Of a stretch of 64,000 bases of DNA, positions 7,880 to 13,847 are shown in pieces. Each line of letters opens with the position of its first letter. Position 1 is the first letter of the stretch. The position numbers were made by a program, and so were the translations under genes. Source of the DNA: an uncultured Methanobacteriaceae archaeon (lineage in GTDB: Archaea; Methanobacteriota; Methanobacteria; Methanobacteriales; Methanobacteriaceae); assembly GCA_963704525.1 (NCBI GenBank), contig OY969914.1, forward strand, positions 890,475 through 954,474. The letters run 5' to 3'. Under the pieces are notes generated by a model. That model ran no database searches. It saw only the letters and a list, made by a program, of their open reading frames with translations, and had not been told where the DNA came from.

Positions 7880-8410
7880 TCATTTATAATGAAAAATTTC
7901 ACCATCCTCAGCAATGTTATGTTTGGCAGATAAAACATTGGGAGTTATTCTGTAGACCGACGTTGCATTTCCATCCAGTGAAGAACGGTAGTTCTCCATC
8001 ATCTTAGCAGTTAATTTTTTTTGGTAGAATCCTGGAGTGTATTTTTCAACAAGTCTATTGAGTATGTTTGCTGCTTCTTCAAAATCAACAATCTTTTGAA
8101 CCTTTCCAAATAACATGACACTCATGTACGAAGTATCTGCATGACATGGCATAGGGTCTACTACTGTACCATATTCTTCGTATACTGTGAAGCATACCTC
8201 GGGTTCATTTGAAAGTATGATTTCCTTTTTTCCAGAACCTGCACCATGAAAAAATATTGAACCATCACACCATACGAAGTTCAGGGGTAAAGCATAGGGA
8301 GTGTTATCATCGTTCATTCCCAATATCCCCACCCTTGTACAACTTAAAAAATCGTCTATTTTTTGTTTATCCGTGCATTCTCTCTGTACATATCTAATCT
8401 TATTCATCAA
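7880..8410 (-). CDS. Pyridoxamine-5'-phosphate-oxidase-like flavin-binding protein, probable Anf3 homolog
   Basis: Split-barrel motifs PYALPLNF and IFFHGAGSGKK, plus PCHADTSYMSV. Last gene of the anf run, overlapping the stop of the upstream gene. The Anf3 assignment rests on family plus position. Confidence 0.7.
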   Translation of the reverse strand: MMNKIRYVQRECTDKQKIDDFLSCTRVGILGMNDDNTPYALPLNFVWCDGSIFFHGAGSGKKEIILSNEPEVCFTVYEEYGTVVDPMPCHADTSYMSVMLFGKVQKIVDFEEAANILNRLVEKYTPGFYQKKLTAKMMENYRSSLDGNATSVYRITPNVLSAKHNIAEDGEIFHYK

Positions 8411-9116
8411 AGCATCTCCTATCCTCTAATTTTTTTAGCTTTGTGAGGAAAATATTCATCCACTCATTGGCTTGTTTATTATATTCATAATTTAGAAGTT
8501 CATTTTTAGATTGAACATATGGACCCGGTAACATTTCATCTCCACACTTATCCACAAGGTCGCTGATAATTTTAGGGGTGATTTCTAAATGAAACTGAAA
8601 TCCAAACACCCTTTTATTGTATACAAATGCCTGATGACTGCAGGCATCATTTTCTGCCATACAAACTGCATTTTTAGGTAATTTACTGAATGTGTCCCCA
8701 TGCCAATGAAAAACGTTAGTATACTCTGGAAAAAAAGAATAAGTTTCGTAAGATCTTGATTCATCTGTGAAACGTACAGGAAACCATCCAATTTCTAGAT
8801 GAGGATTCTTTGTAACCTTTCCCCCTATCACATCTGCAATTAACTGACCTCCCAAACAAAAACCAATTATCAGCTTTCCAGCCTCAATAGCATTATGAAT
8901 AAATGATTTTTCCTTGGCAAGCCATGGATAATTTTTTTCATCGTAGATATTCATTGGCCCGCCCATGATCACCAGCCAGTCATAATCGTTATGGCTTGGA
9001 AGATCCTCATCGTTAAATAAGAGTGTCTTTGTCACCTTGAAATCCTGCATCGCAGCCCAAGTCAGTATACTGCCTGGATTTTCGAAAGGAACATGCTGTA
9101 AGTAGTGAAGTCTCAT
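8400..9116 (-). CDS. Class I glutamine amidotransferase-like protein (anf-associated, possibly AnfR-like)
   Basis: HYLQHVPFENPG start, GGPMN, nucleophile elbow GFCLGGQL, HWHGDTF, QFHLE (Cys-His-Glu triad); follows anfK. Confidence 0.8.
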   Translation of the reverse strand: MRLHYLQHVPFENPGSILTWAAMQDFKVTKTLLFNDEDLPSHNDYDWLVIMGGPMNIYDEKNYPWLAKEKSFIHNAIEAGKLIIGFCLGGQLIADVIGGKVTKNPHLEIGWFPVRFTDESRSYETYSFFPEYTNVFHWHGDTFSKLPKNAVCMAENDACSHQAFVYNKRVFGFQFHLEITPKIISDLVDKCGDEMLPGPYVQSKNELLNYEYNKQANEWMNIFLTKLKKLEDRRCFDE

Positions 9117-9230
9117 AATTATTTTAACTCCTTAATTTATTTGGAAATTGAAATTTAATAAATTTTAATCTATTATTTTATTTGTGTTATAGGATTTTTA
9201 TTTGTATCATAGTATAGTTAAAAATTTTGA

Positions 9231-9270
9231 GAAAATAGGGGCCTTAATAATTTAAGACCCTCCTATTTTC
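9231..9270. terminator. Stem-loop immediately after the anfK stop (terminator, attenuator or mRNA-stabilising hairpin)
   Basis: GAAAATAGG (9231-9239) pairs with CCTATTTTC (9262-9270); inner GGG/CCC and CTTAA/TTAAG arms. Confidence 0.55.
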
Positions 9271-9296
9271 CAGTTTATTTAAGATCGTCAATGATG

Positions 9297-10685
9297 TTAC
9301 CATACATTAAGGATCCATTCCTTATTCTTTTTATATTCCATGTCTGTAAACAGTACATTTGCCATTTCTTCTGCAAGCCAGATTGCACCTGCATATCCCA
9401 CAACAGGGTGTCTGTAATATCCTGCACGATCATAAACAGGAAAGCCCACACGTAGCAATGGTATGTCATTATCTATGGCTATGAAACGACCTTTTGAATG
9501 ACCAATTATAAGGTCGATTTCTACTTCTTTATTTTTTATCCTGCTTTCAAGATCCCATAGATCTGCATTTTGGATTATCTCCATATCGTATTCAATTTTC
9601 TCCTGAAATTCAATTATTCTAGGATCTTCAGAATATTTTGTAGTATCATCACCCAAAAGAAGTAAAACAGGTTTCATTTCAAGATCCAGACAAAATTCTG
9701 CCAATCCTATGACTAGATCAGGATTTCCATAGATCGCAACCTTCTTGTCTGCAAAGAACATGTGAACAAGATCTGTGAGTGCATCGATGGCTATGCCCCG
9801 TTCACGTACAAGTGATTCTGGTATTGGTTTGCCTGTCATTCTCCTTATATTATTTAAAAATGAGTCTGTGTTACGGATACCTATGGGTGTGGGCCCAATT
9901 ATTGAAGGAACCTCAAACTCTCTTTCAAGAAATTCTGCTGCCATTTTGCCCTCGTATCTATTGAGTACAATCGTCCCAATCGCATCTCCTGTGGATTCTA
10001 GATCCTTTATTGTGGTGCCACCGTAAGAAACAGCATCTCCCTTAGGCATCAGGGGAGAATCAAAACTTTCTGTTTCAAACAGCACAGTAGCATCCACGTC
10101 CATCTCTGATAGAAGATGTTTAAGTGCTGTTACATCCCCAGGATTAACCCATCCAGTTATAAGATTGATTTTCCCGTTTGGTTCTAATTTTTTAGCAAAT
10201 TCCTTTACAAAATCCTTTACTGCAATATCATAACCACTCACCATGCTTCCTTTAAAACTTGGAGTGCTAATTGAAATTAGGTGAACTTCACGATCTGCAT
10301 ATTTCTCCTTTAAGAGTCCGTTTTTGAGTTTTCTAATAACTCCTTCCACATCGTCTCCAATTATCTCAGTTGAGCAGGTTGAAATAATAGGAACAACTTT
10401 TACTTCAGGATATCTCATTAAAAGTACATCAACAGCCTCTTCAATACGGTGAGTTGCACCAAGTACAGCTGTATCTTCGTGTAAGGAAGACGATGCTAGG
10501 AGGAAATTTTCCTTAAAGTGCTGTGCAAATAACAGGCGTACAAACATGACACAACCTTGTCCTCCATGGACTATTCCAATACAATCTTCCACCCCTATAC
10601 TGACATACTGAGCTCCTGCAGGCTGGCAGGTAAATATTGGGTTGATGATACCGGATCTTTCTTTCTTTTTCAGTTCGCACGATAT
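9297..10685 (-). CDS. anfK: Fe-only nitrogenase beta subunit
   Basis: Frame extends upstream of the tracked GTG (10592) through (I)SCELKKKERSGIINPIFTCQPAGAQYVSIG to ATA at 10685 (462 codons plus stop). P-cluster Cys in FTCQPAG, HGGQGC and ISTC; ends WILNVW as in AnfK. Confidence 0.92.
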   Translation of the reverse strand: MSCELKKKERSGIINPIFTCQPAGAQYVSIGVEDCIGIVHGGQGCVMFVRLLFAQHFKENFLLASSSLHEDTAVLGATHRIEEAVDVLLMRYPEVKVVPIISTCSTEIIGDDVEGVIRKLKNGLLKEKYADREVHLISISTPSFKGSMVSGYDIAVKDFVKEFAKKLEPNGKINLITGWVNPGDVTALKHLLSEMDVDATVLFETESFDSPLMPKGDAVSYGGTTIKDLESTGDAIGTIVLNRYEGKMAAEFLEREFEVPSIIGPTPIGIRNTDSFLNNIRRMTGKPIPESLVRERGIAIDALTDLVHMFFADKKVAIYGNPDLVIGLAEFCLDLEMKPVLLLLGDDTTKYSEDPRIIEFQEKIEYDMEIIQNADLWDLESRIKNKEVEIDLIIGHSKGRFIAIDNDIPLLRVGFPVYDRAGYYRHPVVGYAGAIWLAEEMANVLFTDMEYKKNKEWILNVW

Positions 10686-10700
10686 AATAATTCCCCCTTT

Positions 10701-12616: not shown

Positions 12617-12816
12617 TAAATTTTCTCCTTTTAATATATTTTTTAAAATATGGTTTTTAATTTTACATTTAAAGAAATTCTTTGAGACATATAATCTTGC
12701 ATATCGATATTGGTCTTAGTTCATGTTTAAAAAAATTAAAAAAAATTCATCTACAACTAAGATCTGTAATTCAAACAAAATTCCCATTAGGGGACCTGTT
12801 TAAATACCGAATACCA

Positions 12817-12866
12817 GATTCTCCTTGATTTTTAACGATTAAAAAACCTTAAATTCAAGGGGAATC
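12817..12866. other. Stem-loop in the anfH-anfD spacer
   Basis: GATTCTCCTTGA (12817-12828) and TCAAGGGGAATC (12855-12866) form a 12-bp inverted repeat with one non-Watson-Crick position. Confidence 0.5.
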
Positions 12867-12949
12867 GGCTTCGATATGATATCTCAAATAAATTTTTCAT
12901 TTAAAAATCCCATAAAATGTTTATTGAATTCTCAATAATCACATTTATT

Positions 12950-13777
12950 TTAGTCCATTAAACCATATTGAACTACCATTTCTTCAAGTTCGTCCATAGT
13001 CATTGGTTTTGGAATCACGAAATTTTCGTTGTTGATAATTTTACCTGCAAGAGCTTCGTATTCATGTGCCTGATTACATTCTGAATCAAATTCCACCACT
13101 GATTTTTTGTTGAATTCTGCTTTTTGAACCATGTTGTCTCTTGGTACGAAGTAAATTAGCTGGGTTCCAAGTTTGTTACAGAACTCTTCCAGAAGTTCTT
13201 TTTCACCATCAACATTTCTACTGTTACAGATTATACCTCCAAGTCTCACACCACTCTGATTTGCATATTTCACCATACCTTTACAGAGGTTGTTTGCTGC
13301 GTACAACGCCATCATCTCCCCAGATGCAACAACGTATATCTCTTCTGCTTTACCATCCCTAATTGGCATTGCAAATCCTCCGCATACAACATCTCCAAGA
13401 ACATCGAAGAAAACAAAGTCGTTGTCTTCATAAACTTTGAGCTGTTCCATAAGGGTTATTGCAGTTATTACTCCACGACCTGCACAGCCTACACCAGGTT
13501 CAGGACCTCCCGATTCGACACATTTAATTCCTTCAAAACCTGTTGACATGACATTTTCAAGATCCATGCATGCCTCTTCGCCTTCTTCCCTAAGTGTGTC
13601 CATCATGGTTGTTTGCATTTTACCTCCAAGAATCATTCTTGTACTGTCTGCTTTAGGATCACAACCGTGAATCATGACTTTTTTACCGTGAAAATGAGCC
13701 ATGGCTGATGCTGTATTTTGCGTAGTTGTAGATTTTCCAATTCCACCTTTTCCATAAATCGCTATTTTTCTTACCAT
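12950..13777 (-). CDS. anfH: Nitrogenase iron protein of the Fe-only system
   Basis: [12 protein letters not shown]-loop, [29 protein letters not shown]; AnfH-type features [21 protein letters not shown] and AEFNKK; adjacent to anfDGK. Confidence 0.93.
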
Positions 13778-13831
13778 AATAGACCTCTAAATTTTTTGTG
13801 TTTTTTTGAATCGTATTTAATTGTAAATAAT

Positions 13832-13847
13832 CGGAAGTATGCTTCCG
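13832..13847. promoter_or_regulatory. NrpR-type nitrogen operator (GGAA-N6-TTCC) upstream of anfH
   Basis: CGGAA gtatgc TTCCG, 54 bp upstream of the anfH ATG; matches the known euryarchaeal NrpR operator consensus. Confidence 0.8.

Follow-up and report, generated by a model that had tools for sequence, protein, structure and literature searches.

The stretch of DNA analysed here (the window) comprises 64,000 nucleotides of an uncultured Methanobacteriaceae archaeon (contig OY969914.1, positions 890,475 to 954,474), whose genome is a closed chromosome of 2,385,948 bp; coordinates beginning with C1 refer to this chromosome. Between positions 7880 and 13890 the window carries an Fe-only nitrogenase operon, which consists of six genes that all lie on the minus strand. 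The first gene, anfH (12950..13777, 275 amino acids (aa); TIGR01287, 450 bits, cut-off 394), is separated by a spacer of 333 bp (12617..12949) from anfD, encoding the alpha subunit of the FeFe protein (11087..12616, 509 aa; TIGR01861 ANFD, 1053 bits, cut-off 874). The genes for the delta subunit, anfG (10701..11051, 116 aa; TIGR02929, 168 bits, cut-off 125; ATG start preceded by an AGGGAG ribosome-binding site), and for the beta subunit, anfK (9297..10685, 462 aa; TIGR02931, 893 bits, cut-off 854), follow. The operon ends with the genes for a stand-alone class-I glutamine amidotransferase (GATase; 8400..9116, 238 aa; PF00117) and a PNPOx-like flavoprotein (Pyridox_ox_2; 7880..8407, 175 aa; PF12900, 89 bits), the start of the latter and the stop of the former overlapping by 8 nt.

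The curated NCBIfam models assign D, G and K to the Fe-only class, and neither to the Vnf nor to the Nif class: AnfD scores 670 bits with the VNFD model, which does not reach the cut-off of 823, and 334 bits with nifD, and AnfG scores 109 bits with the vnfG model, under the cut-off of 142. The best match of AnfD is the FeFe protein of A. vinelandii (8BOQ_A, residues 2-509 aligned), and both AnfD and AnfK align end to end, residue by residue, with chains A and B of 8BOQ. The P-cluster cysteine motifs of the alpha subunit (including GCAFCG and HGPVGC) and of the beta subunit (TCQPAG, GGQGC, TCSTEIIGDD) are kept, as are the cofactor ligand motifs (the cysteine of LECARS and the histidine of NAHAYH). 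An earlier note on this DNA had described the same gene order on one strand, intact P-cluster and cofactor ligands, an anfH-anfD gap without PII-like open reading frames, and a gap after anfK unable to hold anfO. The redetermined coordinates and the alignment to 8BOQ agree with this description, apart from two corrections, which concern the start of anfK and the label Anf3-like. The gap between anfH and anfD (12949-12617) contains no coding-strand open reading frame of at least 50 aa and no PII similarity, and the 180-bp gap after anfK (9296-9117) contains no coding-strand open reading frame. AnfO (PF09582) has no match anywhere in the genome, and AnfO and AnfR from L074 and L016, used as tblastn queries, likewise find no genome match.

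The remaining nitrogenase genes are found elsewhere on the chromosome. A second cluster (C1:1410256-1417084) consists of nifI1-nifI2-nifD-nifK-nifE-nifN-nifX and lacks nifH. At the position of the missing gene (about C1:1417400-1417340) an operator-bearing promoter and a ribosome-binding site are followed by a 19-codon stub (MVKKINICPKCEIKGLKFI, closed by a stop codon) and about 300 bp of non-coding sequence. The genes nifI1 and nifI2 (C1:1416370-1417084) are the only NifI pair of the genome: there are four good PII matches, of which the nif-linked pair alone is NifI. A gene for NifB without a NifX domain is located at C1:2.224 Mb, so that the dependence of the anf operon on nifB and other factors encoded elsewhere, as supposed in the earlier note, is borne out by nifB, nifI1I2 and nifEN. 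Searching the genome by tblastn with AnfH returns one further NifH-like gene (49% identity), which encodes CfbC of F430 synthesis (NF033200, 441 bits, cut-off 402). The anf-linked H gene is hence the sole nitrogenase Fe protein gene of the genome.

The same partition of genes is found in five further genomes (L001, L002, L003, L008 and G037), which together with the window's genome form group A. Genome G037 we take to be M. lacus AL-21, and the name M. lacus clade rests on this assumption. M. lacus is credited in the literature with "a putative anf gene cluster". Throughout group A, anfH-anfDGK-GATase-PNPOx has the same neighbours, with genes for a histidine kinase and HSP20 on the upstream side and for LemA and DUF2207 on the downstream side, the nif operon reads psi-nifH-nifI1-nifI2-nifDKENX with no functional nifH, and the single nitrogenase-type H gene is the anf-linked one (6 of 6 genomes). 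In the five other genomes the remnant of nifH is an open stretch of 84 codons that matches NifH residues 1-90 (E = 4e-9). Its P-loop is destroyed, the ratio of non-synonymous to synonymous differences (pN/pS) is 0.3-1.1, and an intact promoter, operator and ribosome-binding site precede it (examples are L121:9635-9808, L112:10202-10450 and L117:7636-7884). The stub is collinear in all six genomes, the window's genome keeping 19 aa open, and this collinearity with the remnants of the five relatives points to one ancestral deletion of about 500 bp common to the clade. The 84-codon remnant is probably a pseudogene, although a role as leader peptide upstream of nifI1 is still conceivable.

Both operons have remained under strong purifying selection after the shared nifH deletion. 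Between the window and the five other members of group A the ratio of non-synonymous to synonymous substitution rates (dN/dS) is 0.03 for anfH, anfD and anfK, at synonymous sites that are saturated (dS at least 1). Across nifI1I2DKENX it is 0.02-0.09 (0.02-0.06 for nifDKEN, 0.05 for nifI1/I2), again at saturated synonymous sites. Since the selected NifDK-NifEN system needs an Fe protein and only the anf-linked one is encoded, H would be supplied in trans to the Mo enzyme. Gene content and selection suggest that H and NifI1/I2 are most likely both shared in trans between anf and nif, and that the window contains a functional Fe-only nitrogenase operon that probably makes up, together with nif, a nitrogenase system of two loci with parts in common, characteristic of the M. 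lacus clade. In such a system a single Fe protein would reduce both NifDK and AnfDGK. There is no NifI1/I2 pair in cis between H and D at the window's anf locus, and if NifI1/I2 act on AnfDGK at all they would be supplied in trans from the nif operon; they might then switch off both enzymes, or AnfDGK might escape switch-off. A precedent for one Fe protein serving two dinitrogenases is provided by M. acetivorans, whose VnfH is identical to its AnfH (10.1101/2021.06.03.447018).

It is quite improbable that the anf-linked H serves AnfDGK only, leaving NifDK either without activity or with CfbC or some other NifH-like protein as its reductase. The score of CfbC with the NifH model (398 bits) lies just over that model's cut-off and would be compatible with such a role, but CfbC fits its own family better (441 and 483 bits), and nifDKEN and nifI1I2 have stayed under strong purifying selection long after the shared deletion of nifH. 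CfbC is required by every methanogen for F430 synthesis, and we know of no reported case of CfbC serving nitrogenase.

A search of 301 Methanobacteriaceae genomes with a hidden Markov model of AnfD gave 17 matches above the cut-off and two partial matches. The architecture of the window is found in 6 of the approximately 19 Anf-carrying genomes, all from one clade, and hence is not the norm of the genus. Neither of the two outcomes that the earlier note had named as refuting its reading, a grouping of D and K with Vnf or Nif or an architecture of this kind as the rule across Methanobacterium, is observed. Seven other genomes (group B) contain anfH-I1-I2-anfDGK-GATase-PNPOx. These are assigned to the same GTDB genus as the window's genome and resemble it in AnfD (88-89% identity), in the NrpR-operator type of promoter and in the tail genes (e.g. 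L004 and L009), but they keep I1/I2 and an ATG start of anfK, and several lack nifDK or nifEN. The locus of Methanobacterium sp. UBA375 (L012, genome G012; 8001-12073) is a bare anfDGK-GATase whose surroundings lack H, I1 and I2 within 8 kb; the only H and NifI genes of that genome are part of a normal nifH-I1-I2-DKENX operon (L113), the mirror image of the arrangement in the window's genome. The AnfD scan finds 12 Methanobacterium/Methanobacteriaceae genomes at 86-92% identity, followed by Desulfosporosinus, Pelosinus and Propionispira at 82-84% and by Methanosarcina at 77-78%. The closest bacterial clusters (Desulfosporosinus, Pelosinus) begin with anfH-I1-I2-DGK and end in GATase-PNPOx, in many cases with nifB and an AIG2-like gene in between; anfO is absent from them. 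Desulfosporosinus, Pelosinus and Propionispira share with the window the GATase-PNPOx tail and the lack of anfO, and provide the closest AnfD and AnfK outside Methanobacterium (76-84%). They differ in the retained I1/I2, in the ATG start of anfK, in the nifB and AIG2/GGACT-like (AnfR-like) gene that many of them carry after anfK, and in H and I proteins that are only 75% and about 50% identical, respectively.

The phylogeny that the earlier note had proposed as a check was computed for D and H, and places AnfD near Bacillota and H in a Methanobacterium clade. In the AnfD tree Methanobacterium is monophyletic (support of 98 in the Shimodaira-Hasegawa-like approximate likelihood ratio test, SH-aLRT), group A forms a clade (99) that is sister to group B plus L012, and the whole is grouped with Methanosarcina, Desulfosporosinus, Pelosinus and Propionispira (99) inside a Bacillota-rich radiation. 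For AnfD it is plausible that archaea and Bacillota are connected by an old lateral transfer, in either direction. In the H tree all Methanobacterium H proteins, whether nif- or anf-linked, form one clade (100/99) apart from bacterial AnfH, so that Methanobacterium has no dedicated AnfH lineage distinct from NifH. In genomes that hold two copies, one nif-linked and one anf-linked, these are most closely related to each other. As the H paralogues cluster by genome, 'anfH' is a positional name only and the H phylogeny does not decide between descent from nifH and descent from anfH; concerted evolution or a recent duplication would account for the clustering. Between the anf-linked I1 of group B and the nif-linked I1 of the window's genome the identity is 82-85%, and the H-I1-I2 module is thus native and homogenised within genomes.

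These results bear on the reading given in the earlier note, namely a bacterial-style gene order under an archaeal promoter, possibly acquired laterally. Its strongest form, a recently acquired bacterial anfHDGK cluster that never contained nifI1/I2, is hardly credible. The greater similarity of AnfD to Desulfosporosinus (84%) than to Methanosarcina (78%), the position of the Methanobacterium AnfD clade within the Bacillota-rich radiation and a GC content of the operon slightly higher than that of its flanks would agree with such an event. However, in the bacterial clusters nearest to it H and D are separated by I1/I2 and anfO is missing, so that the gene order of the window is not the bacterial pattern. 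Moreover, Methanobacterium AnfD is monophyletic and seven of its members retain I1/I2, H belongs to the Methanobacterium clade and shares no more than about 75% identity with bacterial AnfH, and synonymous sites are saturated within the clade, which implies that the cluster is old. Of the earlier interpretation the archaeal promoter, the dependence on genes elsewhere and, for AnfD, a deep link to Bacillota thus stand; the bacterial-style order does not, and H groups with NifH/AnfH of Methanobacterium instead of bacterial AnfH. The lack of I1/I2 at the anf locus appears to be a derived trait, a secondary loss confined to one Methanobacterium clade, and the unusual shape of the operon is best described as the outcome of a division, specific to this clade, of the shared genes among anf and nif.

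The promoter of anfH contains the TATA box TTTATAAATAA (13877..13887, minus strand), read directly from the sequence and kept in all Methanobacterium anf promoters of groups A and B. Approximately 22 nt downstream lies a composite NrpR-type operator, TCGGAAGACGGAAGCATACTTCCGA (13831..13855, minus strand), with the core GGAA-N6-TTCC at 13846-13833; operator and promoter are both identical in the six genomes of group A. The motif CGGAA-N6-TTCCG occurs at exactly two sites in the 2.39-Mb genome, the anfH promoter and the promoter of the psi-nifH/nifI1 operon. The composite form (TCGGAA-N3-GGAA-N6-TTCCGA) is found at 13831-13855 of the window and, in opposite orientation relative to the gene, at C1:1417466-1417490. 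The genome also encodes NrpR with two NRD domains (C1:1.4836-1.4850 Mb). Sequence thus provides both marks of an NrpR regulon, GGAA-N6-TTCC at or downstream of the point where transcription from an archaeal promoter is expected to begin and an NrpR gene, and the archaeal promoter proposed for the operon is well founded. The anf operon is predicted to be under NrpR-type control, and nitrogen limitation would release NrpR from the operators of both anf and nif. The arrangement resembles nif control in Methanococcus maripaludis, where an NrpR operator is combined with switch-off by NifI1/I2 and in which GGAA-N6-TTCC likewise lies just downstream of the TATA box and NrpR has two NRD domains; in the window's genome, by contrast, the operator precedes the anf-linked H gene and the NifI genes are at the other locus.

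The spacer between anfH and anfD contains several elements, which were defined by alignment of the six group A spacers and lie on the minus strand: a conserved hairpin with a T-run (about 12796-12773), two invariant oligo-T tracts (T8/T7, 12747-12724), the invariant motif CGATATGCA (12706-12698) and a TATA-like element, TTTAAATG (12673-12666), about 50-55 nt ahead of the ATG of anfD. The motif CGATATGCA lies about 95 nt upstream of anfD and, in partly conserved but recognisable form, also precedes anfD in group B. A permissive Rfam scan of 7600-14500 gave chance-level matches only and no family for the spacer. The pattern fits a terminator after anfH together with a separate anfDGK promoter, by which the shared Fe protein could be made with molybdenum present. 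The hairpin, the oligo-T tracts and the TATA-like element may permit expression of anfH without anfDGK, as would be expected if anfH is also needed when molybdenum is available, and CGATATGCA is a candidate site for Mo-dependent control.

The spacer yields no remnants of I1/I2 above noise, either by tblastn (word size 2, E up to 100) or by blastn against an H-D region of group B, which bears on an alternative history with the same functional outcome. An ancestor similar to UBA375 could have possessed nifH-I1-I2-DKENX and bare anfDGK-GATase; a promoter and a copy of nifH would then have been placed before anfDGK and the original nifH decayed, the anf locus never having lost I1/I2. Genome G012 shows exactly this bare arrangement, the composite operators at the anf and nif promoters are near-identical, nif- and anf-linked H genes are inseparable by phylogeny, and the cluster of group A lies in a genomic neighbourhood other than that of group B. 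We nevertheless regard this course of events as possible but rather unlikely, because I1/I2 adjoin anfD in Bacillota, Methanosarcina and group B, which makes their presence the more parsimonious ancestral state, and because group A is sister to group B plus L012 instead of being nested with L012. As H-I1-I2 is homogenised within genomes, the two histories, loss of I1/I2 and copying of nifH, are not distinguishable by their H genes.

A further peculiarity of the operon, not mentioned in the earlier note, is the start of anfK, which lacks an ATG, GTG or TTG start codon. Past the anfG stop (TAG 10703-10701) the frame stays open, with the translation K G G I I I S C E L K K K...; anfK itself starts at ATA 10685-10683, 18 nt after the anfG stop and directly downstream of a G-rich ribosome-binding site (GGAGG or GGGGG across group A). 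The first canonical start in frame is GTG 10592, but a protein starting there scores 827 bits, under the cut-off of 854, and loses the P-cluster cysteine of TCQPAG; the TIGR02931 cut-off is reached only with the ATA 10685 start. Ser2 of AnfK aligns to residue 1 of 8BOQ_B, and the codon before Ser/Thr-Cys-Glu is ATG in more than 70 AnfK homologues. Between the ATA and GTG 10592 the 31 codons show 14 synonymous and no non-synonymous differences compared to L001, which, together with the alignment of Ser2, argues that this N-terminal stretch is translated. The start codon is ATT in L001, L002, L008, G037 and probably L003, and ATA in the window, so that a non-canonical initiation codon of anfK appears to be an old and stable trait of the group A clade. 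AnfK would be initiated at AUA (AUU in the relatives), most likely by termination-reinitiation coupling to anfG.

Two other explanations of the anfK start were considered and rejected. Against a G-K fusion by read-through of the in-frame anfG stop speak the stop itself (TAG or TAA across the clade), the intergenic ribosome-binding site and the homologues, which all start AnfK at the same codon. The out-of-frame GTG 10680 opens a frame that yields an unrelated peptide of 55 aa. We note that in L003 (Methanobacterium sp. ERen5, about 9946-9975) the A8 run after the ATT start is one A short, frameshifting the first few codons, likely a long-read homopolymer error.

The missing canonical start of anfK and the regulator genes missing from the anf operon could also be taken as steps towards a pseudogene cluster that no longer supplies a working Fe-only enzyme. 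Decay of this kind is highly unlikely, given the dN/dS of anfD and anfK (about 0.03, with synonymous sites saturated), the absence of stops and frameshifts in 5 of the 6 genomes, the 31 N-terminal codons of anfK that are protein-identical despite 14 silent changes, and the intact ligands of all metal clusters.

Taken together, the observations may be combined into one distributed Mo/Fe-only system, in which the single H gene resides at anf and the single NifI1/I2 pair at nif, a conserved terminator/promoter spacer carrying a Mo-responsive CGATATGCA uncouples anfH from anfDGK, and AnfK is made from an AUA/AUU codon by termination-reinitiation. This combined model is tentative, and we hold it with distinctly less confidence than the two-locus system as such. 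Several points weigh against one or the other part. The case for sharing H and NifI in trans is drawn from gene content and selection. The covariation support of the spacer hairpin is weak. The Methanosarcina-type ModE box RTTATGT-N8-RCATAAY (up to 2 mismatches, whole genome) has no perfect site in the genome and none near the anf operon; a ModE-like gene is present at C1:1501793. A consensus scan finds a terminator-like hairpin with a T-rich tail in the 180-bp anfK-GATase gap (9239..9260, minus strand), and the number of such sites across the region is not above chance, the scan (with sigma-70) being uninformative for an archaeon. Finally, in the systems studied, which are bacterial, AUA and AUU are poor initiators, and the yield of AnfK could be low.

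The two tail genes are linked to anf beyond Methanobacterium: the GATase gene is found next to anfDGK in Methanobacterium and Bacillota, and the PNPOx-like gene is linked to anf in Methanobacterium, Bacillota and Methanosarcina. Both are under purifying selection, with a dN/dS of 0.07-0.09 for the GATase between the window and members of group A. The GATase retains an intact Cys-His-Glu triad (GFCLGG and HLE motifs kept); the solved structures nearest to it are those of stand-alone amidotransferases not yet characterised, 3L7N being the best match. The flavoprotein had been described as Anf3-like, and Anf3 (6RK0), an FAD/haem oxidase, belongs to the same family, PF12900. The label is loose, since Anf3 (225 aa compared to 175 aa) matches with E = 2.6e-7 over residues 13-132, whereas BH0577 (2HTI), the best solved relative, matches with E = 6e-50. 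The Methanosarcina homologue, named Anf3 in the literature, is 57-61% identical. The co-translated pair may represent accessory proteins of this anf lineage, and the flavoprotein may have an Anf3-like protective role.

In the relatives among Bacillota a gene for an AIG2/GGACT-like protein is situated between anfK and the GATase gene, frequently accompanied by nifB and homocitrate-synthase-like genes (L016:11609-13230, L018:11463-15029). The gene that follows anfO in proteobacteria (L074:12193-12783) is of this family too, and the position of the AIG2-like protein beside the GATase hints at a link of gamma-glutamyl chemistry to Anf.

Among known systems, the anf/vnf genes of Methanosarcina acetivorans (anfI1I2DGK with a divergent anfH) are alike in the archaeal AnfDGK, in an Anf3-like PNPOx gene nearby (L053), in a nifB located elsewhere and in one Fe protein sequence that serves more than one dinitrogenase, as it presumably does in the window's genome. 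In contrast, the window's anfH lies on the same strand directly upstream of anfD, the anf locus lacks I1/I2, and the genome contains neither a separate nifH nor a Methanosarcina-type ModE box nor AnfO; the linked GATase and the ATA start of anfK are further differences. The proteobacterial clusters anfHDGKOR-anf3 (Rhodopseudomonas, Azotobacter, Rhodobacter) share the H-D-G-K order, the absence of PII genes inside the cluster and a PNPOx-family gene downstream (L074), but possess anfO (PF09582) and an AIG2-like anfR, depend on a sigma-54/AnfA activator and are accompanied by a nifH of its own; none of this applies to the window's genome.

Neither a sole Fe protein gene at anf with a nifH stub at nif, nor an ATA/ATT start of anfK, was found in the literature searched. 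To our knowledge, work on the alternative nitrogenases of methanogens has been confined almost entirely to Methanosarcina. The M. lacus clade would offer a natural case in which one Fe protein supports a Mo and an Fe-only dinitrogenase and one NifI pair regulates both or one of them, bearing on the compatibility of Fe proteins and dinitrogenases, on target recognition in PII switch-off and on minimal gene sets for engineering nitrogenase. The AUA/AUU start, if true, would be one of the few documented examples of a methanogen initiation codon other than NUG; conserved in a stoichiometric subunit, it is well suited for testing how archaea handle non-canonical initiation and translational coupling. 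In practice, the ATA/ATT start causes gene callers to truncate AnfK.

Two further observations concern the relatives and the surroundings of the operon. Five genomes of group B, namely G009 (= G056, 99% complete, 2 contigs), G005, G006, G011 and G007, contain anfH-I1-I2-anfDGK (e.g. L009:5873-12738) and have no NifD or NifE match anywhere, only distant Nfl-type paralogues. They would be organisms with an Fe-only nitrogenase but no Mo-nitrogenase, at odds with statements in the literature that all methanogens with anf also have nif and, if confirmed, with the common view that an alternative nitrogenase does not occur without the Mo-nitrogenase. Upstream of anfH, an intergenic region of about 1 kb (13778-14803, 26% GC) separates the operon from its divergent neighbour (14804-15589), an HSP20 protein with a long N-terminal extension that is weakly LEA-repeat-like.

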